Under the pieces are notes generated by a model. The model was not told the origin of the DNA. It saw nothing but the letters and a program-made list of their open reading frames with translations, and did not search any database. A program made the translations under genes and the position numbers. This document shows positions 432 through 31,497 of a stretch of 64,000 bases of DNA, one piece after another. The DNA comes from Abditibacteriota bacterium (GTDB lineage: Bacteria; Armatimonadota; UBA5829): positions 220,564 to 284,563 of the forward strand of contig JAFZNQ010000009.1 in NCBI GenBank assembly GCA_017552965.1, read 5' to 3'. Position 1 is the stretch's first letter. Each line of letters begins with the position of its first letter.

Positions 432-2244
432 AATCGTTGATAAGAGGCATCCTTGCCAGCGCCTCAAACTGGATATCTATACCCACCACGCCGATGAAAT
501 CATCGTCATCGTTGTATATGGGAGCAGACACGGTGATACACATCTCTCCCGTGTAGCGGGAGGTATAAAAATCGGTGATATATATCCCCTTGTTCTTCTT
601 GGCCTCCACGAACCACTCCCTTTCGCTGAAGTTCTCGCTGCCGGTGGCGGAGACGTATTTTTCGTTCAGCTGACTGGGGTTGATGTTTTGGGTGATGCGT
701 ATGCCCTTGCTGTCCGTCACGTAGGCAAACTGTATGAAGTCGTGCTTTCTGACTATATTCGACAGCTTGGCCTCTATGCCGGACACGTTCATCTTCTGGG
801 TGCAGGGGTCTTCCACTATCTCTTCTATGATCTTCTCGGTCAGGTCCAGAGCTCTGTTCTTGATGATATCAAAGTCGCTCTTGAAATAGTCGGGCAGATA
901 TATCCGGGCCTGAGCCAGCATCTCCGTATCCGATATGCTGGTCACCCTGCCGGCCTTGTACTGCTCGTGGACCCATTCGTTGATCTTGTAGAGACCCGGA
1001 TGCTTTTTGTCTATGGCGTATTCGCTCTTCAGGCCCAGGAAGGCGTTGACCCAGTGGGCTATGCCGGCCAGTCCGGACTTGTCCGTGACGTTCACTCTGG
1101 CAGGCCTGTTCAGTATCTTGGCAGTATCGAAGATGTTGTATATCTCTTCGTTCTTCAGGATGCCGTCGGCGTGGACGCCGGCGCTGGTCACGTTGAAGTT
1201 GGAGCCCACGAAGGGATAGTTGTCCGGTATGGTGAGGCCCAGCTCCTCGGTGTAGTATTTGGCCACCTCGGTGATCATACGGGTATTGATGCCGCAGTCG
1301 GAGCCCTTCAGGGAGATGTAGTCAAAGATGGCCCCCTCCAGCGAAGGATTGCCGGTCCTCTCTCCGAAGCCGAAGAGAGACGCGTTGACGGCGGCTGCTC
1401 CGTAGAGCCAGGCGGTGGTGCCGTTGACGCCCACCTTGTGAAAATCGTTGTGTCCGTGCCATTCCAGCCACTTGCCGGGGACTCCGCACTCGTTCTTGAG
1501 AGTGTAGATCATCTTGGGCACCGACCTGGGGAGGGCAGCCTCGGCCCAGGGCACGCCGTAGCCCATGGTGTCACACAGGCGGATCTTCACTTCCCTGCCG
1601 GCTTCCTTTGCCACCTTCATCAGCTCGGTGACGTAGGGGATCACAAAGCCCTCAAAGTCGGCTCTGGTGATGTCCTCCAGATGGCACCGCACCGCGTCCA
1701 GACCGAAGTCAAAGGCGTCCCTGACGAGAGAGATATACTGCTCCTTCACCTGCGCCCGGTCCTTTTTCAGCTTCAGATAGATGTGATAGTCCGAGCAGGA
1801 GGTGAGAATGCCCGTTTCCTTCAGGCCCATCTGCTTTACTATCTCAAAATCCTTCTTGGTGGCCCTGATCCAGCCGGTGACCACCGGGAACTTGTGTCCC
1901 AGCTCCAGACACTTGTTGACGGCGTCCTTGTCCTTGTCGGAATACAGGAAAAACTCCGAAAATCTGATGATGCCGTTGGGGCCGCCTATCTGGCTGAGAA
2001 AGTCGTACAGCTTGACTATCTCGCCGGCGGTATAGGGAGGCCTGGCCTGCTGTCCGTCCCGGAAAGTGGTATCTGTGATATAATAATCCTCCACAGGGTC
2101 CATAGGCACGCTCATGCCGTCAAAGACTATGGCCGGGACCTCCGTATAAGGGAATTGCTCCCTCAGCAGGTTGGGCTCCCGGGGGTTGACGAGCTCGCTA
2201 TGGTTTGCAAAGGTCTGAAGTCCGTTCGCTTTTTTGATTATCAT
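430..2244 (-). CDS. HMGL-like family synthase (2-isopropylmalate/homocitrate/citramalate/Re-citrate synthase relatives) with a C-terminal Cache/PAS-like domain
   Basis: ORF 430..2271; I prefer the ATG at 2242-2244 (MIIKKANG...), which has a strong RBS AAGAGGAGGacaag. The N-terminal TIM-barrel shows DRE-aldolase/HMGL motifs ITDTTFRDGQQ ... HGHNDFHKVGVNGTTAWLYGA. The C-terminal ~160 aa (DFIQFAYVTDSKGIRI ... KGIYITDFYTSRYTGEMCITVSAPIYNDDDDFIGVVGIDIQFEAL) look like a Cache/PAS ligand-binding fold. Confidence 0.75.
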   Translation of the reverse strand: MIIKKANGLQTFANHSELVNPREPNLLREQFPYTEVPAIVFDGMSVPMDPVEDYYITDTTFRDGQQARPPYTAGEIVKLYDFLSQIGGPNGIIRFSEFFLYSDKDKDAVNKCLELGHKFPVVTGWIRATKKDFEIVKQMGLKETGILTSCSDYHIYLKLKKDRAQVKEQYISLVRDAFDFGLDAVRCHLEDITRADFEGFVIPYVTELMKVAKEAGREVKIRLCDTMGYGVPWAEAALPRSVPKMIYTLKNECGVPGKWLEWHGHNDFHKVGVNGTTAWLYGAAAVNASLFGFGERTGNPSLEGAIFDYISLKGSDCGINTRMITEVAKYYTEELGLTIPDNYPFVGSNFNVTSAGVHADGILKNEEIYNIFDTAKILNRPARVNVTDKSGLAGIAHWVNAFLGLKSEYAIDKKHPGLYKINEWVHEQYKAGRVTSISDTEMLAQARIYLPDYFKSDFDIIKNRALDLTEKIIEEIVEDPCTQKMNVSGIEAKLSNIVRKHDFIQFAYVTDSKGIRITQNINPSQLNEKYVSATGSENFSEREWFVEAKKNKGIYITDFYTSRYTGEMCITVSAPIYNDDDDFIGVVGIDIQFEALARMPLIND

Positions 2245-2284
2245 CTTGTCCTCCTCTTGCGGGGGCGTCACAGACGCACCCTCT

Positions 2285-2317: not shown

Positions 2318-4168
2318 TCAGATCCTCTGAAAGGCCTTGTCCAGATCGTAGTCCGTGATGGACATGAGGATAGGCCTGCCGTGGGGACAGGTGTTGGGTA
2401 TGCGGCACTTCACCAGCTCGTCCACCAGAGTCTGCATCTCTTCCTGCGACAGCTTGTCGCCGGCCTTGATGGCCATGCGGCAGCTGGCGTAAATGAGCAC
2501 CCTCTCCGGCTTGATGACCAGCTTTTTGTCCCCCTGCTCCTCGGACATATCGCTTATGATCTCCTGCAGCACGCTCTTCGCGTTCTTTTCGGTGAGACAG
2601 GCGGGATAGCCGCGCATGATGAAGCTGCCGGCTCCAAAGTCCTCCAGCACGTAGCCGGCTCTGGACAGCTCCTCCATCCGGGCGTTCACTATGGCGGCGT
2701 CCTTCATGGAGCAGCTGATGGTCTCCGGCATGAGCATCAGCTGGGACCCGGTGTTCTCGGCGGAGCGCTCTTCAAAGCTCTCGTAGAGTATGCGCTCGTG
2801 GGCCACGTGCTGATCTATGACTATGATGCCCTTGTCGGAGGAGCATATGATATAGGTGTTCCTGTATTGTCCTATGACCTTCAGCTCGCCGGGGATGGGA
2901 GCCGGCGCCGGCTGCTCGGGCAGGCTGCCCCATGCAAAGGGGTCCCCTTCCTCCTTCCGGTCCGCCAGGTCTATCCTGAAGGTATCGGTCCCGCCGCTCA
3001 TGGTCTTGGGCAGCTCCACCGGGGTCCGGCGGTATTCCCCCGCGGCCCGGCTCCTCTCCTGTCCTCCGGACTGCCCTGCGGACTGTCCCTGCTTCTCCGG
3101 CTCGGCGCCTGTCTGCAGGGCGCCCCGCTCGGCGGGTCTCAGGGAGCCGAGACTGCCGGAGACAGCCTTGGTCACTCCCTTGTGTATCAGCCCGGATATC
3201 TGGCTTTCGTTGCTGAAGTTCACCTCGCTCTTGGCGGGATGCACGTTCACGTCCACCAGCCCCGGCGGCAGCGTCACGAATATGACGGCGGCCGGATATT
3301 TGCCGGGAGCAAGAGTCTTGTAGGGCAGCTCTGCCATATACAGCATCTTTCTGTTTTTGACGCAGCGGCCGTTGACGTACATATATTCGTCTCTTCTGGA
3401 GCCCCGGCAGCCCTGGGCGGTGGACACGTAGCCGGACACGGTGGAGACTCCGTCCGTCTCGGAAAAATACACCATATCCCTGGCAGTATCCGCCCCCAGC
3501 ACGGAGGTGATGGCGTTCAGCAGATTGCCTCCCGGAGCCGACAGCAGCAGCCTTCGCGGGGTGTATTCGCCCCTGTCCCTGCGTATGAGGTTCACCAGCT
3601 CAAAACGCCTGCCGGGCTCTCCTATGGCCAGCTGGCTGATGACGCCCAGTATGCCATTCTGCTCCGAAGACGCGGTCTTCATGAACTTGCGTCTGGCGGG
3701 CACGTTGTAAAACAGGTCCCTCACGGTGATGCGGGTCCCCCGGGAAAAAGCGATACGCTCCACGCTCTCCGGCTCCCCGCCGCTGACGGTGATGCGCACC
3801 CCGTTGCCCTCCGGATTGTCGCAGGTCTCTATGACCATCCTGCTGACGGAGGCTATGCTGGGCACCGCTTCCCCCCTGAAGCCCAGAGTGGTGATGTTTG
3901 ACAGGTCGTCGGCAGAGCGTATCTTGCTGGTGGCGTGTCTGGAGAGGCACATCACCGCGTCGGTCTCGGACATGCCGCAGCCGTTGTCCGTGACCCTGAT
4001 ATAGGTCTGGCCGCCGTTTTCGATCTCTATCTTGATGGCGTCGGCTCCGGCGTCGATGGAATTCTCACAGAGCTCCTTGACCACGGAGAGAGGCCGCTCC
4101 ACCACCTCGCCGGCAGCTATCTGGCTGGCGGTGATGTCGTCCAGTATGTTGATCTTAGCGTCGCTCAT
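2318..4168 (-). CDS. mutL: DNA mismatch repair protein MutL
   Basis: N-terminal GHKL ATPase motifs (ELCENSIDAGA, TDNGCGM). The C-terminal endonuclease motif DQHVAHERILYE is typical of MutH-less bacteria. RBS GAAGAGG before the ATG at 4166-4168. Confidence 0.95.
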   Translation of the reverse strand: MSDAKINILDDITASQIAAGEVVERPLSVVKELCENSIDAGADAIKIEIENGGQTYIRVTDNGCGMSETDAVMCLSRHATSKIRSADDLSNITTLGFRGEAVPSIASVSRMVIETCDNPEGNGVRITVSGGEPESVERIAFSRGTRITVRDLFYNVPARRKFMKTASSEQNGILGVISQLAIGEPGRRFELVNLIRRDRGEYTPRRLLLSAPGGNLLNAITSVLGADTARDMVYFSETDGVSTVSGYVSTAQGCRGSRRDEYMYVNGRCVKNRKMLYMAELPYKTLAPGKYPAAVIFVTLPPGLVDVNVHPAKSEVNFSNESQISGLIHKGVTKAVSGSLGSLRPAERGALQTGAEPEKQGQSAGQSGGQERSRAAGEYRRTPVELPKTMSGGTDTFRIDLADRKEEGDPFAWGSLPEQPAPAPIPGELKVIGQYRNTYIICSSDKGIIVIDQHVAHERILYESFEERSAENTGSQLMLMPETISCSMKDAAIVNARMEELSRAGYVLEDFGAGSFIMRGYPACLTEKNAKSVLQEIISDMSEEQGDKKLVIKPERVLIYASCRMAIKAGDKLSQEEMQTLVDELVKCRIPNTCPHGRPILMSITDYDLDKAFQRI

Positions 4169-6740
4169 TGTCCAGCCTCTTCTTCCAGGTGTATATCAGA
4201 TTGAGAGCCTCTATGGGAGACAGGGAGTCCGGATTGACGGCCCTGATCTCCTCGGTGACGGGATCCGGAGCGATGTCAAACAGCTTCAGCTGTATGTTCT
4301 CCGCAGCCGGGCCGATGGCCTTTTTGTCCGAGTCCTCGGCTTCCAGCCGGGCCAGTATGTCTCTGGCTCTCCCTATGACCGATGCGGGCAGGCCCGCCAG
4401 CCGGGCCACCTCCAGACCGTAGGATCTGTCAGTGCCGCCCTTCATGATCTTTCTGAGCCATATCACCCGGTCCTTTTCTTCCCGGACGGCCACTCTGTAA
4501 TTGACCACTCCCTCCATATGCTGCTCCAGCTGGTTGAGCATATGGTAGTGGGTGGCAAAGAGGGCCTTGCAGCCGATCCTTTCCAGCTCCTCCAGCGACG
4601 CCCAGGCAATGGCCAGACCGTCGTGGGTGGAGGTGCCCCTGCCTATCTCGTCCAGTATCACCAGACTGTCGGAGGTGGCGTTGTTGATGATGTTCGCCGT
4701 CTCGTTCATCTCCACCATAAAGGTGCTCTGGCCCGTGGCCAGCTCGTCATGGGCCCCTATGCGGGTAAATATGCGGTCCACCACCCCTATATGGGCTTCC
4801 TCCGCCGGCACGTAGCAGCCTATCTGGGCCAGCAGCACTATAAGGGCCGTCTGGCGCATGTAGGTGGACTTGCCGGCCATATTGGGACCGGTGATCACCC
4901 ATATCCTGCTGTCGGAGCCGTTGAGATGGGTGTCATTGGCCACAAAGGCTTCGGTACAGGTCTCTATGACAGGATGTCTGCCGCCCCTGATATCGATGCA
5001 GCCGCTGTCATTGACCTCCGGCTTCACATAATCGCTTTCGCCGGCCAGATAGGCAAAGGAGGACAGCACGTCCAGCCTGGCTATGCCGGAGGCGGCGGCC
5101 CCGATGCGGCGGGTCTCGTCACCCAGCTTGTCCAGCAGCCGGTCCCAGAGCTCCTTTTCCAGCTCCAGGGCCTTTTCGTCGGCTCCCAGCAGCTTTTCCT
5201 CTATGGCCTTCAGCTCCTCTGTGATGTATCTTTCGCAGTTCACCAGAGTCTGCTTGCGTATATACCGTTCGGGCACTGAGTCCTGCTCCTTGCGGCTGAC
5301 CTCGATGTAATAGCCGAAGACGCTGTTATAGCCCACCTTGAGGGTCTTGCAGCCGGTCTGCTCCCTCTCCTCGGCTTCCAGCTGCAGTATCCAGCTCTGC
5401 CCCTGGCTTTTGGCGTTGCGCAGGGAATCCAGCTCCGGGTCGTAGCCGTCCCGGATGACGCCGCCGTCCCGTATGGAGGCGGAATGGTTTTCCATGACTG
5501 CGCTTTCGATGAGACCGGCGGTATCCTCAAAGCCCTCAAAGCCGGCGGCCAGCTCCCCGGGTCTGTCCTTCAGCAGCTCCGACAGGCGGGGCAGCTCCCG
5601 CAGGCTGGCGGCAAGTCCCAGCAGGTCCTTGGGGGAAGCCATCTTGGACACTATGCGGGACTGTATCCTCTCTATATCCATGATCTGCCCCAGGGACCTG
5701 CGGGTATCCTCCAGCAGCAGGCGGTCGGAGGCAAACACCTCCACCTTGTCCAGGCGGTCGTTGATATCCCGGCAGGACACCAGAGGCGCCTCTATCCAGC
5801 TGCGCAGCAGCCGGGCTCCCATGGCAGTCCTGGTCCTGTTCACCGTGGCCATGAGGGTCAGGCTTTTGTCCCCGGGCCCTGAGGGCTGGGTCAGCTCCAG
5901 ATTCTGGCGTGTGGAAGCGTCCATCAGCATAAAGCCCCGGGGGTCATAGTTGGATATGGAGATGATGTTTTTCAGGATGTCGGGGCTGTTCTTGCGTATG
6001 TAGCTGAGTATCAGAGCCCCGGCCCACAGCCCTGCGTCATAGTCGTCCAGACCAAAGCCTCTCAGGGAGTCCGTGCGAAAATAGGACGACAGAGCCTCCC
6101 GGGGGGTCTCACCGGGCATAAGCCCTGCGTCTGTGAGCTCGTAGCGGGAGTTGGTGCAGCAAAGGAGCAGATTCTCAAAGTCTCTCCCGGACCGGTCGCT
6201 CACCAGTATCTCGGTGGGCGACAGCCGGGCCAGCTCGTCGGCGATGGTCTGCCTGGCCTCGCTCATGGGGAACTCGCACACGGCAAACTCTCCGGTGCTC
6301 ACGTCCGCAAAGGCCATGCCCACCGACCTGTCCTCGCCGGCCAGGGCCACTATGAAGTTGTTGGCGTCTCCCTGCAGCATGCCTTCTTCGATGACGGTAC
6401 CGGGAGTCACCACTCTGGTCACCCCTCTTTTGACCAGCTTTTTGGCCTTTTTGGGGTCCTCCAGCTGGTCGCAGACCGCCACCTTGTAGCCCTTGGCCAC
6501 CAGCCGGGCGATGTATTTGTCTCTGGCGTGGAAGGGAAAGCCGCACATGGGCATGTCGGCGGCATAACCAGCCGAGCGCTTCGTGAGAGTGATCTCCAGC
6601 TCTTTGGAGGCGATCTTCGCATCCTCGCCGAACATCTCGTAAAAATCGCCCATTCTGTAAAACAGTATGATGTCCGGATACAGAGCCTTGACCCGGAGAT
6701 ACTGCTCTTCCATAGGGGTAGTCTTTTTGTCTGCTTTCAT
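4155..6740 (-). CDS. mutS: DNA mismatch repair protein MutS
   Basis: N-terminal mismatch-binding motif TPMEEQYLRVK...GDFYEMFGEDA; Walker A GPNMAGKSTYMRQ; 861 aa. Overlaps the mutL start by 14 nt, suggesting co-transcription. Confidence 0.95.
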   Translation of the reverse strand: MKADKKTTPMEEQYLRVKALYPDIILFYRMGDFYEMFGEDAKIASKELEITLTKRSAGYAADMPMCGFPFHARDKYIARLVAKGYKVAVCDQLEDPKKAKKLVKRGVTRVVTPGTVIEEGMLQGDANNFIVALAGEDRSVGMAFADVSTGEFAVCEFPMSEARQTIADELARLSPTEILVSDRSGRDFENLLLCCTNSRYELTDAGLMPGETPREALSSYFRTDSLRGFGLDDYDAGLWAGALILSYIRKNSPDILKNIISISNYDPRGFMLMDASTRQNLELTQPSGPGDKSLTLMATVNRTRTAMGARLLRSWIEAPLVSCRDINDRLDKVEVFASDRLLLEDTRRSLGQIMDIERIQSRIVSKMASPKDLLGLAASLRELPRLSELLKDRPGELAAGFEGFEDTAGLIESAVMENHSASIRDGGVIRDGYDPELDSLRNAKSQGQSWILQLEAEEREQTGCKTLKVGYNSVFGYYIEVSRKEQDSVPERYIRKQTLVNCERYITEELKAIEEKLLGADEKALELEKELWDRLLDKLGDETRRIGAAASGIARLDVLSSFAYLAGESDYVKPEVNDSGCIDIRGGRHPVIETCTEAFVANDTHLNGSDSRIWVITGPNMAGKSTYMRQTALIVLLAQIGCYVPAEEAHIGVVDRIFTRIGAHDELATGQSTFMVEMNETANIINNATSDSLVILDEIGRGTSTHDGLAIAWASLEELERIGCKALFATHYHMLNQLEQHMEGVVNYRVAVREEKDRVIWLRKIMKGGTDRSYGLEVARLAGLPASVIGRARDILARLEAEDSDKKAIGPAAENIQLKLFDIAPDPVTEEIRAVNPDSLSPIEALNLIYTWKKRLDNERR

Positions 6741-6757
6741 ATCGTTTGAGGGCCTTG

Positions 6758-8077
6758 TCAGGGGAGCCTGCCCGTAAAGCCGTAGAGTCCGGCCTCGGTC
6801 ACCACGGCTTCGGTCACAGAGCCAGTGGCGGGCTGAGCTCCCTCAAAATTAAAGGTCTTTCCCTGCTCCGTGAGACCTGTCCTCTGACCGGGCCGGGAAG
6901 CGTTGCCGTGGACCAGCACCCGCTCCGTCCTGCCGATGCGGGACCTGTTGATATCCACGGTGATGGCGTTCTGCAGGGCTATGAGACGCTCCAGTCTCCT
7001 GTTTTTATCCTTCATGGGCATCTGCCCCTCCATGGAGGCAGCGGGAGTACCGGGGATGGGATTGTAGCTGAACATAAAGGCAGCGTCAAACCTGATCTCC
7101 TCCACCAGCGCGAGGGTATGCTCAAACTGCTCCTCCGTCTCCCCCGGAAAGCCGGCTATGAGATCCGTGGTGACGGCCACGTCCTCCACGGCGCTCCTGA
7201 GGGCGGCTATGAGCTCTCTGATCCTGCGGGAGTCATACTTTCTGTTCATGTTCCGGAGCACCGTATCGTCTCCGCTCTGTATGGCCAGATGTATGTGCTT
7301 TTCCACCTTGGGCAGCCCCGCCATAGCGTCTATGAGAGCAGGGGTCAGATCCTTGGGGTGAGAAGTGGTAAAGCGTATCCTTTCTATGCCGTCTATATCG
7401 TTCACCAGCTCCAGCAGCCGGGGAAAGGTGACTCCGCCGGAGTAGGAGTTCACGTTCTGTCCCAGCAAGGTCACCTCTTTGGTGCCGCCCCGGGCCAGAC
7501 GCTCTATCTCCTCCGTGATGTCGGCATAGTCCCTGCTCCTCTCTCTTCCTCTGGTGTAAGGCACTATGCAGTAGGAGCAAAAGTTGTTGCAGCCGAACAT
7601 GATGGGCACGTATTCCCTCAGAGAGGGCTTTAGCCGCGGGGTCCTTTCGGGCACGGGCAGAGGCTCCCCCTGCTCCTTGTCCGGAAGCTCGAGGTCATAG
7701 AAAAACCCGTTGGGAGCGGCCTGAGCCCGGGCTATGAGGCCGGGTATGGCGGAGAGCCTGTGGGTGCCGCACACAAAGTTCAGCCAGGGCCTGCCCCGTC
7801 TCAGAGCCTTGCCCTGCCTCTGGGCCATGCAGCCGTAAACGCCTATGATCAGGCCGGGGTTGGCCTCCTGCTTGATGATGGCCAGCTCTCCCAGCTTGGA
7901 CAGCACCTTGTTCTCGGGCTTCTGACGCACCGAACAGGTCACCAGCACCGCCGCCGCGGCCTCCTCGGGATTCCGGGTCTCCTCGTAGCCGGCCTTCCTG
8001 AGATAGTCGCCTATCTGGGCCGCGTCCTCCTCGTTCATCTGGCAGCCCCAGACGTAGAGTATATACTTCGGAGCCAT
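6758..8077 (-). CDS. miaB: tRNA-2-methylthio-N6-dimethylallyladenosine synthase MiaB (radical SAM methylthiotransferase)
   Basis: N-terminal MTTase motif VWGCQMNEED; radical SAM CNNFCSYCIVPYTRG; C-terminal TRAM region. 439 aa. Confidence 0.9.
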   Translation of the reverse strand: MAPKYILYVWGCQMNEEDAAQIGDYLRKAGYEETRNPEEAAAAVLVTCSVRQKPENKVLSKLGELAIIKQEANPGLIIGVYGCMAQRQGKALRRGRPWLNFVCGTHRLSAIPGLIARAQAAPNGFFYDLELPDKEQGEPLPVPERTPRLKPSLREYVPIMFGCNNFCSYCIVPYTRGRERSRDYADITEEIERLARGGTKEVTLLGQNVNSYSGGVTFPRLLELVNDIDGIERIRFTTSHPKDLTPALIDAMAGLPKVEKHIHLAIQSGDDTVLRNMNRKYDSRRIRELIAALRSAVEDVAVTTDLIAGFPGETEEQFEHTLALVEEIRFDAAFMFSYNPIPGTPAASMEGQMPMKDKNRRLERLIALQNAITVDINRSRIGRTERVLVHGNASRPGQRTGLTEQGKTFNFEGAQPATGSVTEAVVTEAGLYGFTGRLP

Positions 8078-8083
8078 GCCCTG

Positions 8084-9598
8084 CTATACGCCCGACTTGA
8101 TCCTGCTCTCCGCCTGATCCGTAAAGTCCTGGGCGGCAGACAGGGATTCGTCGTCCCGGCTCTCATAAAAGTCGCCGTAGCCGGAGGCGGCGGAGTTCAG
8201 CAGATTGCCCACCAGCTTCAGATTGCCGAAATTGGTGTTCGGGTCCATCTGCGCCAGCTGGCTGATCACCAGGAGCAGGCTGTCTATCTTGTTCTTGTAT
8301 TGCTTTATCTTGTCGTTGACCGAGCTCTTGCCGGGCTCCGTCTTGGCCACCGTGTAGCCAAAGCTCTTGATCTCGCCGGTGTATTTGGACAGGGCCGTGG
8401 ACAGCAGCGCGTGCATGGTGGCGGAGCGTTTGGTGATGGCGTAGTATTCGCCGGTGGCGCCTCTGGCGTTCATGGTCTTCAGTACGGAGGCCGCCTCCAT
8501 GTAGCGCTGGGAGTTGGTGTAGAGATACACCAGCCTCTCGTAGGGGCGCCAGTCGGAGGGATAGGACAGGACGACGGCATTGTATTTTTTGATAGCTTCG
8601 TCCGTGTTGCCCTGCAGCCACAGCTTGTCCGCCTCGGAGATGAGGGCGGACACCTGAGAGGACCGGGCGGGCGCTGGAGAAGGAGTCCTGACCGTGACGG
8701 AGTCGTCGCCTTTGTCGGGCTCGTCGGTGATATCAAAGCGCACCCTGCTCTCGTATTTGGTCTTCAGCTCGCCTATATCGATGCCTCTGTAGCCCATATT
8801 GATGGCGGCATAATAGCACTCCAGGGCATCCTTGAACATCTGCTTTTCATAGTATATCTCCGCCAGCTTCAGCCTCAGCTCCGGATCGTTGGGGTCCATG
8901 TCTATCATCCTGCGGACGATCCTGTAGGCTTCCGAGTAGTTTTTGTCCTTCATGGCGGCGGCGTTCAGCTTCGAGAGAGCCTTGGAGTCCAGCTCCGACA
9001 GGTCGGAGGAATTGTCGGGAGCCTTGGTCTCCCTGCCGGACTCGTCGGTCATGACCGTTTCGGCCTGGCCGGAATACACGGCGTTCACTCCGAGGGCTTC
9101 GGATATCACCTTGCTCATAATGCCGCTGCAGGCCGTGTGCAGGGAGTTGGACACGGGAGTGTCGTCCCCTTCGGCGATGGCGCAGGAAGCCTCGGAGGAA
9201 TACACCGAATCGTCCTTCAGGCTGCACAGACTGAAGCTGATATATAGCTTGCCGTCCTTTCGGGAGACCTCGGATATGCCCGCATAGTCGTATTTCAGCT
9301 CCTTGGCCACCCTGATCCTGGAGGTGACGGGAGCGTTGGAGCTCACGTCGTCGGCGGTGATCCGGCCTCTGTTCAGGGCGAGCACCACCACGGGATGCTC
9401 CGGATTGAAGATGAGAGACGAGAACAGATTGCTCTTATCCGCATAAAAGCGCAGGGTCTTGGCCACGAGCCGGGAGTCGCTCTCCTTGGCTCCGCTGGAG
9501 AGATCCGCGTTGTACAAAAGCAGAGCGGGAAGAGAGTCCTGGGCGTATACGCAGCCCGCCAGCAAGAGAGCGGCGGCTATAAACAACAGCTTTTTCAT
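8084..9598 (-). CDS. TPR-repeat lipoprotein, function unknown
   Basis: Signal peptide with lipobox (MKKLLFIAAALLLAGC). Several TPR-like helical repeats (AEIYYEKQMFKDALECYYAAINMGY, AIKKYNAVVLSYPSDWRPYERLVYLY). Confidence 0.65.
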   Translation of the reverse strand: MKKLLFIAAALLLAGCVYAQDSLPALLLYNADLSSGAKESDSRLVAKTLRFYADKSNLFSSLIFNPEHPVVVLALNRGRITADDVSSNAPVTSRIRVAKELKYDYAGISEVSRKDGKLYISFSLCSLKDDSVYSSEASCAIAEGDDTPVSNSLHTACSGIMSKVISEALGVNAVYSGQAETVMTDESGRETKAPDNSSDLSELDSKALSKLNAAAMKDKNYSEAYRIVRRMIDMDPNDPELRLKLAEIYYEKQMFKDALECYYAAINMGYRGIDIGELKTKYESRVRFDITDEPDKGDDSVTVRTPSPAPARSSQVSALISEADKLWLQGNTDEAIKKYNAVVLSYPSDWRPYERLVYLYTNSQRYMEAASVLKTMNARGATGEYYAITKRSATMHALLSTALSKYTGEIKSFGYTVAKTEPGKSSVNDKIKQYKNKIDSLLLVISQLAQMDPNTNFGNLKLVGNLLNSAASGYGDFYESRDDESLSAAQDFTDQAESRIKSGV

Positions 9599-9603
9599 AG
9601 GCT

Positions 9604-10815
9604 CTAATATCCCAATAGTGTATTGATAGTATCTATGTTTGATTTGCAGAACTCGGGCTTGTTGCCCTTGGCCCTTTCTTCCTGATATATTTCCTTGGCA
9701 GCGAGAGCGTTCTTGCGCATCTCTTCATAATTGCCCAAGTCTCCGGCCTTGATGGCGGACTTCAGCAGATTGTTGGCAGCCTTCAGCCTGGCAGAGGAGT
9801 CGTTCTTCGGCTTGTCCTCATCCTTGTCCCTGTCCGCGGGCTTGTCCCGCTCCACCTTCAGAGGGTTCACTCCCTCGCCGGAGCCGTCTTCGCCCTGAGC
9901 GGGCCTCAGCTCAAAATCGGTGTAGGGCACCTTGGAGTCGGACTTGGGCTGCTCTCTCCGGGAAGCGTACCAGTCGGACTTGGTGTCTCTCTCGTCCTGC
10001 TCCTTCCGGGGCTGAGAGCCTCCGGTCTTGATGTGGCTGCCCTTGTCCACCAGAGTATTGGGGTCCCTGACCACCCGCCGGTTGGCGTTGGCCTCCTGGC
10101 GCTGGGCCTCCAGCTGAGCCTTGTATTCGGGAGACTCGTAGGTGTAGGTCATCATGGGCCCCGTGTAGGGCTGGACCGGAGCCGGAGCGGGGGCAGAGGG
10201 CGCCGCAGCCTGAGGGGTCTCGGGGGCAAACTGCTTTATCTCCTCCCGAGCCCTGGCCTCCGCCATCCTTTTGGCCTCTTCGCGGCTGTGGTGGACCGAG
10301 ACGGCGTAGGATATGACTCCCGCTGACACGAACACGCAGCAGGCCGCCGCTATGCACATGACCCTAAAGCGCTTTTGGTCCTTGTTCTCCCTGTACCAGA
10401 GAGCCGCCTTTTCCGACCAGCTGCCGAAGGCCTTTTTTATGTCTTCAAGGGGCGTCGGGGAGCCGGCGCGTTTTTTCGAGCCGTAGAGCTTTTGCTTCAG
10501 CCTTTCGGCCTTGACCTGCTCCGCCACGCTGTCGTGGGAGACCCGTATGATCTTCAGATAGTTTTCCAGAGCCCTGGAGAGATACTCTCTCTCCCCCTCC
10601 GTGTCTCCGGCCTCCCGGTTGGCGTCGGCCAGCTTTTCGTACACGAGAGCCAGCACCGACAGCGCGTTCACGTTCTCGGGACTGGTCTCCAGTATGCTCT
10701 CGGCCAGAGTGGCGCAGTCGGCGTATTCGCCTTCGTTGTACTGATCCCACAGCAGGTCCAGCAGCTGCTTTTCTTCGCCCGGATCCGAATACTTATAAGT
10801 GTCAGTCATGGTCAT
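9604..10815 (-). CDS. TPR-repeat membrane protein with Pro/Ala-rich low-complexity region, function unknown
   Basis: N-terminal TPR-like helices, a single TM helix ([23 protein letters not shown]), a Pro/Ala/Gln-rich segment and a C-terminal TPR-like helix. The start overlaps the ruvB stop by ~14 nt. Confidence 0.6.
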
Positions 10816-11869
10816 CCTCCTTCTCCGTGAAGGACAAAAGCCCTTTTTCTCTGAGATCTACACCCAGATGGTCGTAGGCCAGCCGGGTGGCCACCCGGCC
10901 TTTGGGAGTGCGGCTGATAAAGCCCTTCTGGATGAGATAGGGCTCATGGGCGTCCTCGATGGTATCCTTTTCCTCGCCTATGGCGGCAGACAGGGTGTCC
11001 ATGCCCACGGGGCCGCCGTTAAACTTGTTGATGATAATGTCCAGGATGCGCCTGTCGGCGGCGTCCAGACCTTCTTCGTCTATCTCCAGTCTCCTGAGCC
11101 CTTCTCTGGCGCACTCCAGATCGATGGTGCCGTCCCCCATGACCTGAGCAAAGTCTCTCACCCTCTTCAGGGTGCGTATGGCTATCCTGGGTGTGCCCCG
11201 GCTCCTGGAGGCTATCTCCATGGAGCCGTCCTTGGTGATTTGGGTATCCAGCAGGCGGGCTGTCCTGTCCACTATGTGGCTGAGAGCATCCACGTCATAG
11301 AGATCGAAGTTGTGCACTATGCCGAATCTGCTCCTGAGAGGAGCCGTGATCAGCCCCGCCCGGGTGGTGGCGCCCACCAGGGTAAAGCGCTCCAGAGACA
11401 CGTTGACCGTGTAGGCTCCGGCGCCCTTGCCCACCACGATGTCCAGCTTGTAGTCCTCCATGGCGGGATACAGTATCTCCTCCACTGCCCTGTTCAGCCT
11501 GTGGATCTCGTCTATGAACAGCACCGAGTTCTTTTCCAGATTGCTGAGTATGGCCGCCAGGTCCGCCGGCTTTTCTATGGCAGGCCCGGAGGTGGAGACG
11601 ATATTCACGTCCATTTCGTTGGCGATGATATAAGCCAGAGTGGTCTTGCCCAGCCCCGGAGGTCCGTAGAGAAGCACGTGGTCCAGGGCCTCTCCTCTCT
11701 GTTTGGCAGCCTGTATGTATATATTCAGGTTGCTGACTATCTTGTCTCTGCCTATGAGCTCCGAAAAGCTGCGGGGACGGAGGGAAGATTCCTGCTCGCT
11801 GTCCTCGGGACGCCTTTCCGGCGCCACGAACCTGGGAGCCTCCGCTTCGTCATGGTGTTTGATAGACAT
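10802..11869 (-). CDS. ruvB: Holliday junction branch migration ATPase RuvB
   Basis: AAA+ Walker [21 protein letters not shown], Walker [10 protein letters not shown], sensor motifs; 355 aa. Confidence 0.95.
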
Positions 11870-11882
11870 ATCCTGTGTAGCC

Positions 11883-12479
11883 CTATTTAGTCGATTTGCC
11901 TTTGCCCAGCTGCTTGAGGGCCTTGCTGATCAGGCCGGACAGGTCGTCCGCTCCTTCCGCAGCCATGATGTCATTCACGGCCTTCCCGGCGTTGCTTCTG
12001 GTAAAGCCCAGGCCCGTGAGGGCCTCCACCGCTCTGGCTATGAGCTGGGTATCCTTGTCGCCGGAGCCGGCGCCCGCCGGGGCGTCGCCCAGCTTGTCCT
12101 TCAGATCCAGTATGATCTGCTCCGTGATCTTTCTGCCTACGCCGGGTATGCGGGCCAGGGCTGCATTGTCCCCGGTGAGGACGGCGTTCACTATTTCGGC
12201 GCTGGTCATGACGGACAGGGCGCCCAAAGCTGTCCTGGCGCCTACCTTGTTCACAGACATGAGCTGCTCGAATATGGACTGGTCCTCCTCTGTGTCAAAG
12301 CCGAAAAGGGTGATGGCGTCCTCTCTCACCACCGTAGTGACAAAGAGCTCCGTCTCTCCCTCCGCTCTGGCCAGCAGGGGGGCCGGGCAGCAGACGCTGT
12401 AGCCTACTCCTCCCACGTCCAGGATCAGACTGTCCTGCCTGACAAGCAGCACCTTTCCTCTGAGATAACCTATCATCAC
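11883..12479 (-). CDS. ruvA: Holliday junction DNA-binding protein RuvA
   Basis: MIGYLRGKV...GVGYSV N-terminal OB domain; HhH motifs [16 protein letters not shown]; 198 aa. Immediately upstream of ruvB. Confidence 0.9.
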
Positions 12480-12502
12480 AGCGCCTCCTTCGTATCAGCC
12501 GA

Positions 12503-13372
12503 TCAATAGATCACCTTGTTCAGCGGGAATTCCACTATGCCTTCGGCTCCCGCCCTCTTTACCTGAGGGATCACGTTCCTCAGGGCCTTGTTGTCCACCA
12601 CTATTTCCAGAGCCACCCAGTTCTTGTCTGTGAGCTCATTGATGGTGGGAGTATTCAGGGCCGGCAGCAGGGAGAGCACCGCGTCCAGCTTTTCTCTGGG
12701 CACGTTCATCTTCAGGCCCGAGAGGGTCTCCGCCGTCAGGGCAGCCTGCAGCATGGTGGCTATGTTTTCTATCTTTTCTCTCTTGGCAGGGTCCGCCCAG
12801 GCCTCCTTGTTGCAGATAAGGCGGGTGGTGGATACCAGTATCTCGTCCAGTATGGCCAGACCGTGGGCCTTCAGGGTGGAGCCCGTCTCTGTGCCCTCCA
12901 CAATGGCGTCCACCAGCTCGGGCACCTTTACCTCGGTGGCTCCCCAGGAAAACTCCACCTTCACGTTGACCTTCCGGTCGGCAAAGTATTTTTTGGTCAC
13001 GTTGACCAGCTCCGTGGCCACGGTCTTGCCCTCCAGGTCCTCCGCGCATTTGATGTCCGAATCCCTGGGAGCAGCCAGCACCCATCTGTAGGGCTTGGAG
13101 GTGGCCTTGGAATATATCAGCTCGCAGACCTCCACCACGTCGGCGGAGCACTCGCACACGTTGTCATACCCGGTGATGCCAAAGTCCACGGCTCCCATCT
13201 CCACGTATCTGGGGATCTCCTGCGCCCGCAGCAGTATGGCGTCCAGCTCGGGATCGTCCACGGCGGGGGTATAGGAACGGCTGCGCACGGAAAAGCTCCA
13301 GCCGGCTTTTTCAAAAAGGTTGAAGGTCGCTTCCTGCAGCGAACCTTTGGGCAAAGCTATCTTGACCAACAT
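12503..13372 (-). CDS. hisG: ATP phosphoribosyltransferase HisG, long form with C-terminal regulatory domain
   Basis: The tracked ORF 12503..13900 has a spurious N-terminal extension. The true start is the ATG at 13370-13372 (MLVKIALPKGSLQE...) with RBS AGGAGTGAAT. Contains the HisG_C regulatory domain; about 290 aa. Confidence 0.88.
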   Translation of the reverse strand: MLVKIALPKGSLQEATFNLFEKAGWSFSVRSRSYTPAVDDPELDAILLRAQEIPRYVEMGAVDFGITGYDNVCECSADVVEVCELIYSKATSKPYRWVLAAPRDSDIKCAEDLEGKTVATELVNVTKKYFADRKVNVKVEFSWGATEVKVPELVDAIVEGTETGSTLKAHGLAILDEILVSTTRLICNKEAWADPAKREKIENIATMLQAALTAETLSGLKMNVPREKLDAVLSLLPALNTPTINELTDKNWVALEIVVDNKALRNVIPQVKRAGAEGIVEFPLNKVIY

Positions 13373-13374
13373 AT

Positions 13375-15405
13375 TCACTCCTGTTTGTTGTCTGCCAGAG
13401 CCAGATATGGCTTCAGCAGAATATAATCCAATTTGTCCGGAGACACGTTTTGCTGTACCGAAAGGGCGGCGGCGGCTCCCGCAGCCTGACCCGTGGCTAT
13501 GACGCAGGGCATGATCCTGGCGGCTCCCAGGCCTTCGTGAGTGGCGGATATGATCCTGCCGCAGCACAGCAGGCCGGGTATGCTCTTCACCGTGAGACAT
13601 CTGTAGGGAATCTCGTACCAGTCTCCCGGCGGCGGAGCGGCGGACTTTTTGCCCGACTCTTTGAGGGTGTAGCCCTCGCCGGAGGCGGAATGCACGTCCA
13701 CGGGATAGGCCAGCCGGCACACTCTGTCCCTGTGCTTCATGGAGCTGAGCACGTCCCTGTCCGAAAAGACGTAGTCCCCCACCACTCTGCGGCTTTCCCT
13801 GACGCCCAGTATTTTGGCCCGCTTCAGGAGATAGGCCTTTTCGAAGCCGGGCACTCTGTCCCGGACGAACCTCAGCACCTCCCGGAGCTGCTTTTGACAC
13901 TCTCCGGTCCCCCGGGCTATGTCCCCGGGCGAGAGAGGGTCAGCGAGGGCGGCGTGGGTCTGATTGAACACCACGGCGTCATAGCGGGGGCTCTGAGTCT
14001 TGCGATAGATGTAAAATATCATGTCGCCTGGAAAGTCCGAGCCCTCTTCTTTGGCCTTGCCCACCAGTGAAAAATAGCCGGCGGGGCTGTAGTTGGAGAG
14101 GGCGGTCTCAATGACGTCCGTCCCGGGCTCCAGCTTAGGAAAGAGAAACTCCTCCGGGCGCTCCGCCACGTATGCAAGAGCCCGCCTGACGTCCACGCCT
14201 CCCACGTCAAACATGAGAGTGGCGGCCTGGACCTGTCCCTTGCTGTCACCCGTGCGGGTCTCTGCGCCGAGACAGGCGGCGACTTGCGCGTCTCCCGTGG
14301 CGTCGATGAGACGGCGGCACTCCAGAAATCTGCCTTCCAGAGCCACCGCAAAGGCGCCGTTCTGGCGTCTCACGGCGGACACGAAGCCGCAGCGGGGCAA
14401 AAAGGTCACCCCCGCTTCCCGGAGCATATCCAGCAGCGCTTCTCTCATGGCAGAGGAGTCAAAGCAGTTCTTCCTGAGAGCTCCCCGGTCCGCGAGACGC
14501 TGTCTCAATTCGTCAAACAGGCCTCCCACCAGGGGCTTGCCGTCGGAAGTGCAGTGGGTCATGAAGGGATTCACCAGACCATAGACTGCCATGCCTCCGG
14601 GTCCCGGCAGCCTGTCGCAGAGGAGCACCGAGGCCCCTGCCCGCGCGGCAGATACTGCCGCGCAGACTCCGGCCAGCCCGGCGCCTGCAACGCACACGTC
14701 ATACACGGCGGCAAATTCCTCCCTGAGTATGCCCAGCGCCCGGGCGGCGGCATCTTTTTCCGCCGCTTTTTTGGAGGCGCCTGTTCCTCTGGCGAGCGTT
14801 CTCCCACTGAATAATACGCAATTTGTAAAGGTTTTGTTGTGGGGAGGCCCGGTCTCTTCCACCGTCTCGTAGGTGGGAGCCGAGTGGAACTTGTCCTGCA
14901 GCAGAGTCTGCAGGGCCGACTTGGTGTCCACGTCCTCTATGGCTTCCAGAGCAGACTCGATGCTCTCCGAGAGCTGCCCTCGCACAAAGGCTTCGCAGAC
15001 CTCCCGGCCGCATGAGAGATATATGGCGGCTGTCAGGGCCTCAAAGGTGTCGCACAGCACCGAGGGCCGCATGACCAGCCCGGTCTTCTTTTCGTTTTCG
15101 GACACCTGTATGTATTCGTAGAGCTTCAGCCGGCGGGCAGCCTCGGCAAGACTGGGCTCGCCGATGACCACGGCCTTCATCCTGCTCAGGTCTCCCTCGC
15201 GGCAATCGGGGTATTTGTCAAAAAGGATCCGGGCGACTATCTCGCCCACTATGCTGTCCCCCAGGAACTCGAGCCTTTCGTTGTACTCGGCGTCAAGGCC
15301 GTCCTGCCGGACCGACTTGTGCACGAAGCACTGGTCCAGATAGGCGGACGGGACGAGAGGGACCCCGGCCCTTTCGGACAATTCCCCGATCTGTTTGTCG
15401 TCCAT
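13375..15405 (-). CDS. rnc: Ribonuclease III (RNase III catalytic domain plus dsRBD) fused in frame to an FAD-dependent oxidoreductase domain
   Basis: Residues 1-~228: RNase III signature NERLEFLGDS, catalytic ...DTFEALTAAIYL, and a dsRBD (PHNKTFTNCVLFSGRTLARGTGASKKAAEKDAAARAL). Residues ~232-676: Rossmann FAD-binding motif YDVCVAGAGLAGVCAAVSAARAG and an FAD_oxidored-like body. No stop codon and no internal Met/RBS at the junction (ILREEFAAVYDVCV). Its start overlaps the stop of the upstream aminotransferase gene (TGATG). Confidence 0.8.
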   Translation of the reverse strand: MDDKQIGELSERAGVPLVPSAYLDQCFVHKSVRQDGLDAEYNERLEFLGDSIVGEIVARILFDKYPDCREGDLSRMKAVVIGEPSLAEAARRLKLYEYIQVSENEKKTGLVMRPSVLCDTFEALTAAIYLSCGREVCEAFVRGQLSESIESALEAIEDVDTKSALQTLLQDKFHSAPTYETVEETGPPHNKTFTNCVLFSGRTLARGTGASKKAAEKDAAARALGILREEFAAVYDVCVAGAGLAGVCAAVSAARAGASVLLCDRLPGPGGMAVYGLVNPFMTHCTSDGKPLVGGLFDELRQRLADRGALRKNCFDSSAMREALLDMLREAGVTFLPRCGFVSAVRRQNGAFAVALEGRFLECRRLIDATGDAQVAACLGAETRTGDSKGQVQAATLMFDVGGVDVRRALAYVAERPEEFLFPKLEPGTDVIETALSNYSPAGYFSLVGKAKEEGSDFPGDMIFYIYRKTQSPRYDAVVFNQTHAALADPLSPGDIARGTGECQKQLREVLRFVRDRVPGFEKAYLLKRAKILGVRESRRVVGDYVFSDRDVLSSMKHRDRVCRLAYPVDVHSASGEGYTLKESGKKSAAPPPGDWYEIPYRCLTVKSIPGLLCCGRIISATHEGLGAARIMPCVIATGQAAGAAAALSVQQNVSPDKLDYILLKPYLALADNKQE

Positions 15406-16604
15406 CAGCGCAGCTTGCTCACCGCTTCGGCTATCCTGGACACGCCTTCCTTAATGGCGTCCATGCCGGTGGCGTAGGACAGACGTATGTTGTTGGGAGC
15501 GCCGAAGCCGCTGCCTGCCACGCAGGCCACCAGAGCGTGCTCCAGCAGATAGGCGCACAGGTCGTCGGAGGAACCGATGGTCCATTTGTCATAGGCCTTG
15601 CCGAAGAGGGCCGACACGTTGGGCAGCACGTAAAAGGCTCCGTCGGGCTCCAGGCAGGTGACGCCTTCGATGTCGTTCAGCATGCGGCAGATCACGCCCC
15701 GCCTCTCCTCGAAGGCCTTTCTCATGTCCTCCAGAAAGCTCTGGTCCGCCGCCAGGGCGGCTTCGCCAGCAGCCTGGACAAAGGAGGTGGCGTTGGAGGT
15801 GGAGTGGCCCTGTATCTTGCTCATGGCGCTGATGATATCGGCTTCGGCAGCCGCGTAGCCCAGACGCCAGCCCGTCATGGAATAGGCCTTGGAATGGCCG
15901 TTGACGGTGATGGTCAGCTCCCTGATGCGGGGGTTGAGGGAGGCTATGGACACGTGCTTTGCTCCGCCGTATATGATCTTTTCGTATATCTCGTCGGACA
16001 GCACCATCACTCCGGCGTCGGCGCAGACGTCCGCTATCTCGGCTATGGTCTCCGGGGGATACACGGCTCCCGTGGGATTGGAGGGAGTATTCAGGACCAG
16101 CATTTTGGTCCTGGGGGTGATGGCAGCCCTGACCTGCTCTCCGGTGACGCAAAAGCCGGTGGACTCGTCTGCGGAGATATAGACGGGCGCGCCGCCGGCC
16201 ATCTTCACTATCTCGGGATATGACACCCAGTAGGGCGCGGGGATGATCACCTCGTCGCCGGGGTCCACCGTGGCCATGATGGCGTTGTAAAGGGAGTGCT
16301 TGGCGCCGCAGGAGACCAGTATGTTCTCGGGGCCGTATTCCAGTTCGTTGTCTCTCTTCAGCTTGTTGATGATGGCCTTTTTGAGGCCGGGAGTCCCGCC
16401 TACGGGAGTGTACTTGGTAAAGCCGGCTTCGATGGACTTGAAGCAGGCTTCTTTGATGAATTCGGGGGTGTCGAAGTCGGGCTCGCCCGCTCCGAAGGAT
16501 ATGACGTCGATCCCGTCGGCCTTCATCTGCTTTGCCTTGGCCGAGATGGCCAGCGTAGGCGAAGGAGCGATGCCGAGGGCTCTCCTGGAAATAGATCCGG
16601 ACAT
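15405..16604 (-). CDS. Aspartate aminotransferase (class I PLP-dependent aminotransferase)
   Basis: 399 aa; fold-type I aminotransferase motifs (GEPDFDTP, ...SKAYSMTGWRLGYAA with the Schiff-base Lys); RBS AAGAGG. Confidence 0.85.
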   Translation of the reverse strand: MSGSISRRALGIAPSPTLAISAKAKQMKADGIDVISFGAGEPDFDTPEFIKEACFKSIEAGFTKYTPVGGTPGLKKAIINKLKRDNELEYGPENILVSCGAKHSLYNAIMATVDPGDEVIIPAPYWVSYPEIVKMAGGAPVYISADESTGFCVTGEQVRAAITPRTKMLVLNTPSNPTGAVYPPETIAEIADVCADAGVMVLSDEIYEKIIYGGAKHVSIASLNPRIRELTITVNGHSKAYSMTGWRLGYAAAEADIISAMSKIQGHSTSNATSFVQAAGEAALAADQSFLEDMRKAFEERRGVICRMLNDIEGVTCLEPDGAFYVLPNVSALFGKAYDKWTIGSSDDLCAYLLEHALVACVAGSGFGAPNNIRLSYATGMDAIKEGVSRIAEAVSKLR

Positions 16605-22607: not shown

Positions 22608-22690
22608 GCCGAAGTGGTGGAATGGCAGACACGCATGGTTCAGGACCATGTGCCCGCAAGGGCATAGGAGTTCGACTCTCCTCTTCGGCA
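22608..22690 (+). tRNA. tRNA-Leu (anticodon CAG), long variable arm
   Basis: Cloverleaf folded by hand: acceptor GCCGAAG/CTTCGGC, anticodon stem CATGG/CCATG with loop TTCAGGA, long variable arm, T-arm AGGAGTTCGACTCTCCT. 83 nt, no encoded CCA. Confidence 0.85.
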
Positions 22691-26978: not shown

Positions 26979-26984
26979 CGGGTG

Positions 26985-31493: not shown

Positions 31494-31497
31494 CGGG

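Follow-up and report, generated by a model that had tools for sequence, protein, structure and literature searches.

Can a bacterial ribonuclease III carry an entire flavoenzyme in the same chain and, if so, do the two halves work together? RNase III is among the most conserved and architecturally invariant of bacterial RNA-processing enzymes, and its class-1 form cleaves dsRNA as a homodimer in a Mg2+-dependent reaction. The question is raised by one gene in a 64-kb stretch of Abditibacteriota DNA (hereafter the window), a complete coding sequence of 676 codons plus a TGA stop (13375-13377) that occupies 13375..15405. The original prediction, which did not give the strand, described an in-frame fusion of a catalytically complete RNase III and a full FAD-dependent oxidoreductase. 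Pfam, NCBIfam and motif searches bear this out, and the gene and all features described below lie on the minus strand. We conclude that the fusion gives a known enzyme a new domain architecture, present in a small clade of uncultured Abditibacteriota. Our favoured reading, which we consider fairly probable, is a genuine, stable fusion of small-indel origin whose product is a bifunctional homodimer, with both ancestral activities kept and mechanistically independent. Public record MBR4748333.1 is an identical protein, named 'ribonuclease III [Abditibacteriota bacterium]', a label that hides the second (FAD) module.

Complete RNase III and FAD modules in one reading frame

Residues 1-224 make up an entire class-1 RNase III: no catalytic acid is missing, and a double-stranded RNA-binding domain (dsRBD) is present. 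The catalytic (dimerisation) domain (aa 22-145, 14971..15342) matches Ribonucleas_3_3 (PF14622) at 7e-26 and PF00636 at 2.8e-20, and carries the signature NERLEFLGD (aa 42-50, 15256-15282). Loss of catalytic residues, for which the original prediction had allowed, was not seen on closer alignment: E43, E46, D50, E70, E105, D119 and E122 (D119/E122 at 15040-15051) are all kept, matching the conserved metal-binding acids of RNase III (E38, E41, D45, E65, E100, D114 and E117 in Ec numbering). The single dsRBD after the nuclease domain (aa 162-224, 14734..14922; PF00035 dsrm, 6.4e-15) has a GPPHNKTF loop and an SKKAAEK helix motif that are invariant in 4/4 fusion orthologues, and the protein now continues beyond it. 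The whole protein scores 198.9 bits against the NCBIfam RNase III equivalog TIGR02191 (cutoff 166.25), and no second rnc was found within the window.

The fusion thus shares with the class-1 enzymes of E. coli (Rnc), Aquifex aeolicus and Thermotoga maritima one nuclease domain, NERLEFLGD, the metal-binding acids and one dsRBD, and differs from them in the 445-residue flavoenzyme that follows the dsRBD. A normal rnc product had been put at about 230 aa, in line with the 213-272 aa of the best 120 RNase III matches. At 676 aa with its FAD_oxidored module, the fusion breaks the usual size limit of a nuclease plus dsRBD (about 220-270 aa).

The second half (aa 236-664, 13414..14700) matches FAD_oxidored (PF12831) at 1.7e-95, with a score of 321.2 bits (gathering score 27) and coverage of profile positions 1-412 of 416. 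It has the traits of that family, namely an N-terminal GxGxxG (the dinucleotide-binding motif GAGLAG at 14668-14685), an acidic residue closing beta2, and FAD-contact motifs both inside the module and towards its C-terminus. Family-conserved columns are kept at 98 of 132 positions, and the module deviates from the family no more than equally diverged stand-alone members do. A degenerated FAD module is therefore unsupported, its conserved columns being kept as in those members. Counting against a retained ancestral activity, some family-conserved polar residues (H338, D374, E500 and R504) are replaced within the fused clade.

Both ends of the gene are tightly coupled to its neighbours, as had been claimed. 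A class I/II aminotransferase gene (15405..16604, Pfam), the conserved partner of rnc in Abditibacteriota, lies upstream, its stop overlapping the fusion start as TGATG. Downstream, the start of hisG (ATP phosphoribosyltransferase; 12503..13372, Pfam and gap table) comes 2 nt behind the fusion stop (TGAATATG), and an AGGAG lies inside the fusion gene at its 3' end. Next in this tightly packed array come ruvA and ruvB, read in the same direction; the intergenic gaps of the array run from -14 to +23 nt (gap table). GC3 is 0.75-0.76 in both halves of the fusion and host-like, so a recent horizontal gain of the FAD half is unsupported. The nearest stand-alone FAD relatives come from AT-rich genomes.

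Both halves are conserved and under purifying selection

The original prediction proposed looking for the same fusion in relatives, and three further Abditibacteriota sequences have it. The four sequences (100, 84, 64 and 60% identity) each contain RNase III, dsRBD and FAD_oxidored. The claim of an intact reading frame holds: none of the four orthologues has a stop at the junction or an indel that would restore one. The order aminotransferase, fusion, hisG, ruvA, ruvB, seen in L001 and L025, recurs in a separate metagenome-assembled genome (MAG) from yak rumen and in another assembly of the window organism; GCA_017959625.1 is among the fusion-bearing MAGs. Between members of the fusion lineage, identity is 82% for the aminotransferases (window versus L001) and 64% for rnc.

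Both halves are under purifying selection. Against P0002 (dS 0.66), dN/dS is 0.22 for the nuclease, 0.19 for the dsRBD and 0.14 for the FAD module; against P0003 (dS about 1.8), the values are 0.20, 0.27 and 0.14. A neighbour-joining tree without support values groups the fused FAD modules into one clade, and the fusion seems to have arisen once, within this lineage.

The junction and the relation between the two halves

The two halves meet at GILREEFAAVY (aa 225-235, 14701..14733), identified from the alignment, the AF2 model and a comparison of termini as an 11-residue structured linker through which the last dsRBD helix passes straight into Rossmann strand beta1. AF2 predicts a helix at 212-232 and then a strand at 234-240 (pLDDT about 95; whole-chain pTM 0.81). 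In length, the junction equals the C-terminal tail native to the stand-alone rnc of Abditibacteriota, and V234 falls at the position of Met1 in stand-alone FAD proteins, whose sequences open with M-Y/F-DV. The junction is gap-free in the alignment of all four fusion sequences, and dN/dS against P0002 is 0.07 across aa 215-250.

The simplest reading is of two independent retained activities in one chain. The N-terminal RNase III domain would dimerise and cut dsRNA with the help of the dsRBD in class-1 fashion, while each subunit would bear a flavoenzyme on the far end of the last dsRBD helix, held by the short structured linker and keeping a small-molecule oxidoreductase activity. We infer both the retention of the two activities and their mechanistic independence; for the flavoenzyme, it is sequence conservation that suggests that the ancestral activity may persist. 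If the halves are independent, the gene is an instructive case of a fusion between translationally coupled genes that looks neutral and has long been kept in evolution. Counting against independence, the long persistence, the fixed-length and indel-free linker and the rigid predicted junction exceed what a neutral accident would need; together they suggest that the linkage itself may be selected.

Functional coupling is an alternative that we take seriously, unlikely as we hold it to be. Here the FAD module would act in cis as a redox or metabolite sensor that regulates RNase III, rigid attachment to the dsRBD letting flavin reduction or a ligand shift that domain and alter substrate binding or cleavage, so that RNA processing would follow metabolic state. 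The short, indel-free and moderately conserved linker would suit such a device, as would the continuous helix-to-strand junction of the AF2 model, which suggests a defined inter-domain geometry. The fusion has moreover been kept up to saturating dS and never re-split, and its extension follows the dsRBD, unlike that of all other extended bacterial RNase III proteins seen. A precedent exists in trans: YmdB, an E. coli macrodomain protein and nucleotide-binding regulator, binds and modulates RNase III, and a review speculates on a redox link (PMC3867540). YmdB is a separate protein contacting the nuclease, whereas the partner in the fusion is a covalent flavoenzyme on the dsRBD whose regulatory role is hypothetical; YmdB is the closest model known for how the two halves, if coupled, could operate. 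Coupling is weakened by the fact that rnc and the FAD family neither co-occur nor adjoin outside the fusion clade. Furthermore, the FAD module keeps its putative active-site residues and is constrained as in stand-alone enzymes, so a working enzyme fits better than a sensor.

More broadly, the flavoenzyme might be a built-in sensor or effector whose reduction or substrate binding repositions the dsRBD and gates dsRNA cleavage or, in a rarer variant, a module that modifies the RNA duplex held by the protein; we regard this as rather unlikely. The original prediction had likewise proposed redox coupling of RNA processing, or use of the RNase/dsRBD fold as a scaffold. Neither proposal is supported, the partners of the FAD relatives being non-RNA genes and the fold a generic GR2 one, and neither is refuted. 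Were the halves coupled, the fusion would be a natural case of metabolite- or redox-gated dsRNA processing; with a sensor or effector of the kind described, it would be the first bacterial RNase III under direct cis control by redox or metabolic state.

Translation of the FAD module on its own, additionally or even mainly, from an internal start would make the fusion partly nominal, with two proteins coming from one ORF. The original prediction had seen no stop, Met or RBS near the junction. Its sequence (...ALGILREEFAAVYDVCVAGAGLAG...) indeed has neither stop nor Met, but the RBS part is not strictly true: a Shine-Dalgarno-like AGGGAGG (14718..14724) places a GGAGG 11 nt upstream of an in-frame GTG (14704-14706), which encodes V234, the residue at the Met1 position of stand-alone FAD proteins. 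This spacing exceeds the optimum, and the SD-like motif is missing in P0003. The internal start is not conserved, the three orthologues reading GTC, ACG and GTC at that codon, and it is the full-length ORF, linker included, that is conserved and selected. We therefore consider separate translation quite improbable. The AGGGAGG and GTG are possibly the fossil RBS and start of a once-separate FAD gene.

Relatives of the FAD module

Stand-alone PF12831 proteins of Armatimonadota and Abditibacteriota (such as P0408, P0018 and P0022), together with the P0055/P0007 group, are 47-52% identical to the fused module over its whole length. They have in common with it the FAD-binding motifs, a conserved R/E/D/H/Y cluster and a predicted two-domain GR2 fold; they are about 445 aa long and, unlike the fused module, never stand beside rnc. 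P0408, at 47% identity, is a stand-alone FAD_oxidored protein within Abditibacteriota itself. The neighbours and fusion partners of the family are varied. In L032, an Antibiotic_NAT (AAC(3)-type acetyltransferase) gene lies 19 nt upstream of the stand-alone FAD gene, and P0070 is a direct FAD-NAT fusion. An ABC sugar transporter adjoins the FAD gene in L113, as do prepilin-like genes in three Armatimonadota-type genomes, and other members are fused with F5/8-type-C, GH2_N or GFO_IDH_MocA domains. These partners suggest a carbohydrate- or amino-sugar-like putative substrate for the flavoenzyme. The fusion also offers a testable 'Rosetta stone' link to this large PF12831 subfamily, which is abundant in Armatimonadota and Abditibacteriota.

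An RNA-directed flavoenzyme, by contrast, would modify or reduce RNA in the manner of MnmG, TrmFO and RlmFO-type enzymes; the dsRBD would bring it to double-stranded precursors of rRNA or tRNA, coupling modification to cleavage. Conserved arginines (R536, R540, R602, R617 and R630) could bind an anionic substrate, and there is a weak match to PF01134 GIDA, but that match falls below the gathering threshold (20.1 versus 22.1) and covers a 28-residue dinucleotide-binding motif alone. The module shares the FAD-binding GR2 Rossmann domain with MnmG/GidA and TrmFO; an HMM match over the catalytic region of these enzymes, or a specific structural similarity beyond the FAD domain, was not found. The predicted fold is that of a generic two-domain GR2 flavoenzyme, to which RNA-modifying flavoenzymes are no nearer than dozens of small-molecule enzymes. 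With the partners of stand-alone relatives being acetyltransferase, sugar-transport and CBM-type genes rather than RNA genes, we judge an RNA-directed role very improbable.

Our searches found no characterised or structurally solved close relative of the FAD module, and in the literature no paper on an RNase III-FAD architecture or characterising PF12831. A PADLOC search for anti-phage defence genes gave one marginal match, to a desaturase model (18.8 bits over the Rossmann motif), and we found no link to a defence system.

Distribution and origin of the fusion

An exhaustive search of 1.84 billion representatives for other RNase III-FAD fusions returned the P0002 and P0004 clusters alone, and a scan of GTDB genomes the P0003 genome alone. 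A scan of JGI metagenomes yielded plain rnc genes only, with three matches that overran the junction (L053, L057 and L068) proving to be ordinary rnc. Among other candidates, P0088 is a tandem double RNase III, and P0079, P0134 and P0202 are FAD proteins whose long N-terminal extensions contain no RNase III. Although the source is a MAG, we reject as virtually impossible a sequencing or assembly indel that erased the rnc stop, or a chimeric contig, since the same architecture and junction register recur in four concordant sequences of 60-100% identity from different assemblies and samples, many synonymous differences span the junction, and the exact protein also occurs on an ENA contig of 305 kb.

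Sister Abditibacteriota MAGs have acpP, fabF and the aminotransferase gene, and then a stand-alone 236-aa rnc. Compared with the sister lineage (L026), the aminotransferases are 64% identical and rnc 46%. Because the stand-alone sister rnc sits behind the orthologous aminotransferase gene, gene order identifies the fused rnc as the positional orthologue of the housekeeping gene. The two lineages differ in what comes next: PNP_UDP_1/IF-2B genes follow the stand-alone rnc, whereas hisG and ruvAB follow the fusion. At the five loci of stand-alone FAD homologues that we inspected, none had rnc beside it. A fusion of genes that were already neighbours in outgroups is thus rejected, both by those five loci and by the PNP_UDP_1/IF-2B genes behind the stand-alone rnc.

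We infer an origin by indel. A PF12831 gene would have arrived directly downstream of the housekeeping rnc in one Abditibacteriota lineage, and the rnc stop and FAD start would then have been lost to give a single reading frame. The likely cause would be a small indel where two translationally coupled genes meet, an arrangement used throughout the array; in so tightly packed an array, such an event should be easy.

Comparison with other RNase III architectures

Dicer/Drosha-type enzymes (class 2/3) have two RNase III domains that form an intramolecular dimer, whereas Pfam finds one in the fusion. Among extended RNase III proteins, we compared a TPR-RNase III (P0044), a PHP-RNase III (P0046), a PLD-RNase III-2xdsRBD (P0051), insertion forms (P0049/P0050) and the tandem double P0088. 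Each has its extra domain at the N-terminus or inside the chain, keeps the dsRBD C-terminal and lacks a flavoenzyme, whereas the extension of the fusion comes after the dsRBD. These forms show that class-1 RNase III can gain domains in uncultured bacteria, and the natural attachment of a 50-kDa flavoenzyme to the dsRBD indicates that RNase III tolerates a large C-terminal cargo.

Domain architecture of the fusion gene

The gene at 13375..15405 (-) is a single unbroken ORF of 676 codons, as the original prediction described, and it encodes one polypeptide that comprises a complete RNase III with its dsRBD and a complete flavoenzyme. Pfam assigns aa 22-145 to Ribonucleas_3_3, aa 162-224 to dsrm and aa 236-664 to FAD_oxidored (PF12831), one of the families foreseen for the C-terminal half and matched nearly full-length (profile positions 1-412 of 416, E=1.7e-95). 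The NCBIfam RNase III equivalog TIGR02191 scored 198.9 bits against a cutoff of 166.25; no NCBIfam model matched the C-terminal module past its dinucleotide-binding motif, and no solved sequence relative was found for it past the Rossmann motif. The loss of catalytic residues that had been considered is not borne out: the NERLEFLGD signature and acidic residues E43, E46, D50, E70, E105, D119 and E122 are all present, and we take these seven to correspond to E. coli RNase III E38, E41, D45, E65, E100, D114 and E117. Of these, E. coli E117 is confirmed in the literature (PMC3867540). By sequence, the protein is a class-1 RNase III in everything but architecture, and its module has all the features of PF12831. 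Other extended bacterial RNase III proteins carry N-terminal TPR, PHP or PLD domains, insertions or a tandem duplication; in contrast to the fusion, their dsRBD stays C-terminal and they have no flavoenzyme.

Coupling on both sides was also read correctly. The fusion start codon is overlapped by the aminotransferase stop (TGATG), and hisG starts 2 nt past the fusion stop, with an AGGAG inside the fusion gene's 3' end. In the predicted structure, the last dsRBD helix (212-232) runs straight into Rossmann strand beta1 (234-240) (pLDDT ~95, whole-chain pTM 0.81).

The fusion is conserved under purifying selection

Four proteins of this architecture occur in a large protein database: MBR4748333.1, 'ribonuclease III [Abditibacteriota bacterium]', identical to the window protein, and three orthologues, P0002 (84% identity), P0003 (64%; source, an Abditibacteriota MAG of yak rumen) and P0004 (60%; truncated at a contig end). 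The same fusion, sought in relatives, is thus present. Their alignment is gap-free at the junction and the frame was kept through synonymous change, which disposes of the suspected junction indel. The P0003 genome shares the window gene order (aminotransferase, fusion, hisG, ruvA, ruvB and three further genes), and an independent 305-kb ENA contig carries the window fusion protein with the same neighbours. In codon-level comparison with P0002 (dS 0.66), dN/dS was 0.22 for the nuclease, 0.19 for the dsRBD, 0.14 for the FAD module and 0.07 across the junction (aa 215-250); values against P0003 were similar at dS ~1.8. Such low dN/dS at high dS means that the frame was held while synonymous sites changed extensively, with purifying selection on both halves. 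In P0004 (L002 6001-7310), Asn replaces the metal ligand D119 (E. coli D114; ...MCNTFEAL...) and the other catalytic residues are intact; the substitution could be genuine and attenuating, or a MAG error.

No other RNase III-FAD fusion turned up in an exhaustive HMMER search of 1.84 billion representatives, nor any further one in scans of GTDB species genomes and JGI metagenomes. The rest of the top 150 HMMER matches were stand-alone PF12831 proteins (~445 aa), otherwise-fused PF12831 proteins or P0088. The last was rejected as a fusion of this kind: it is a single 480-aa bacterial polypeptide with the complete RNase III + dsRBD unit duplicated in tandem, and could form an intramolecular Dicer-like pseudo-dimer.

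Stand-alone counterparts of both halves

The nearest stand-alone RNase III proteins are 46-48% identical to the fusion and include an Abditibacteriota-named cluster. In these MAGs, distinct from the fusion-bearing ones, the order is acpP, fabF, aminotransferase, rnc, PNP_UDP_1, IF-2B, and the aminotransferase 5' of rnc is 64% identical to the window's (82% between the window and the P0003 genome). Aminotransferase and rnc have therefore diverged in parallel; by position, the fused rnc is orthologous to the housekeeping rnc of the sister lineage. The 64-kb window contains no second rnc.

Stand-alone FAD relatives are numerous at 44-52% identity, the named ones mostly from Armatimonadota; one, P0408 (47%), is from Abditibacteriota, so the phylum has both components as stand-alone genes. 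A neighbour-joining tree without support values groups the fused modules in one clade, with the P0007/P0055/P0032 group as its sister; this fits a single fusion event. GC3 of both halves (0.75-0.76) matches that of neighbouring genes (0.74-0.81), indicating that the FAD module is long resident.

The stand-alone Abditibacteriota rnc ends in ...KKALAIYETREQNKE, the closest stand-alone FAD proteins begin M-Y/F-DVLVAGGG, and the fusion reads ...RALGILREEFAAV-YDVCVAGAG across the junction. The linker is as long as the native rnc tail, and V234 falls where Met1 of the FAD proteins would have been. Together with tight gene packing (gaps -14 to +23 nt), this match to native termini suggests that a small indel at the translationally coupled junction removed the rnc stop and created the fusion.

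Two proposed activities on one chain

The fused module keeps 98 of the 132 columns that are >=85% conserved in stand-alone members, including all FAD motifs and the conserved cluster R536, E537, R540, D560, Y567, D570, H572, R602, S620 and R630; polar positions H338, D374, E500 and R504 are altered. It deviates at the rate (17-24%) seen in similarly diverged stand-alone members, so constraint has not relaxed. At L032 5197-7332, the closest stand-alone FAD_oxidored has an AAC(3)-family acetyltransferase (Antibiotic_NAT) gene 19 nt 5' of it, and in P0070 the FAD and acetyltransferase domains are fused directly, which gives the flavoenzyme family a second Rosetta-stone link. A sugar ABC transporter adjoins another stand-alone relative (L113), and F5/8-type-C, GH2 sugar-binding and GFO_IDH_MocA domains are fused to other family members. 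In three genomes (L003, L006 and L009, ~4000-7350), two prepilin-type N_methyl/SBP_bac_10 (DUF1559-like) genes precede a stand-alone FAD_oxidored; this three-gene cassette is conserved while its flanks otherwise differ. Taken together, such partners suggest a small molecule rather than RNA as the substrate, probably one related to carbohydrates or amino sugars.

We favour, with some reserve, two independent activities on one chain. In dsRBD structures, this last helix lies away from the RNA-binding surface. RNase III is a homodimer through its nuclease domain (PMC3867540); the fusion protein would likewise form a homodimer, in which each subunit bears a flavoenzyme module on the end of a dsRBD helix and each module performs its ancestral reaction.

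Regulation of RNase III in cis by the flavin module, akin to the redox coupling of RNA processing first proposed, seems rather unlikely; its main support is that the structured linker has kept a fixed length and that the fusion has persisted for long, and its nearest known analogy is YmdB, the E. coli macrodomain protein that regulates RNase III in trans. We doubt strongly that the FAD part is also translated separately from an internal GTG, an addition to the independent activities rather than an alternative and one limited to the window genome. The statement that no RBS lies near the junction is not strictly right for this genome, where an SD-like AGGGAGG (14718-14724) stands 11 nt 5' of an in-frame GTG (V234), but at this codon the orthologues have GTC, ACG and GTC, so the sequences do not support a conserved internal start. 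An RNA-directed flavoenzyme is more improbable still, given partners that point away from RNA. A sequencing or assembly error is virtually excluded by four concordant proteins, a gap-free junction, shared synteny and dN/dS constraint.

Our literature search found no paper describing an RNase III-FAD fusion or characterizing PF12831, and public annotation reads just 'ribonuclease III'. The fusion is real, conserved and undescribed, is confined to a few uncultured genomes and shows no sign of a new mechanism.

Other genes in the window

The fusion lies in an array of ten co-directional genes (2318-16604 (-); gaps -14 to +23 nt): aminotransferase, rnc-FAD, hisG, ruvA, ruvB, hypothetical, TPR, miaB-like, mutS and mutL, a mixture of histidine biosynthesis, recombination, tRNA modification and mismatch repair. 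The hypothetical gene (9604-10815 (-), 403 aa, no Pfam match) overlaps ruvB by 14 nt, lies directly 3' of it and before the TPR protein and MiaB-like radical-SAM enzyme, and is syntenic in the 64%-identity relative (L001 9871-11082). The 613-aa protein at 430-2271 (-) joins an HMGL-like TIM-barrel enzyme domain (PF00682) to dCache_1 and MCP-like PDC sensor domains. This unusual HMGL-like/dCache_1 architecture recurs at L003 8439-10247 and at L004 and L006 8417-10228, 2-3 genes 3' of stand-alone FAD_oxidored in Armatimonadota-type loci.

A hybrid histidine kinase with an amino-acid permease N-terminus (48545-51376 (+); AA_permease_2 + HisKA + HATPase_c + receiver) looks like a transporter-sensor fusion and directly follows a hybrid kinase with two receiver domains (45543-48512 (+)). 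For two long opposite-strand ORF pairs (26982-31634; ~640-885 aa each), Pfam gave no match on either strand. Rfam matched only two tRNA genes in the window, at 22608-22690 (+) and 43510-43597 (-), the latter overlapping the 3' end of a spurious ORF on the minus strand.
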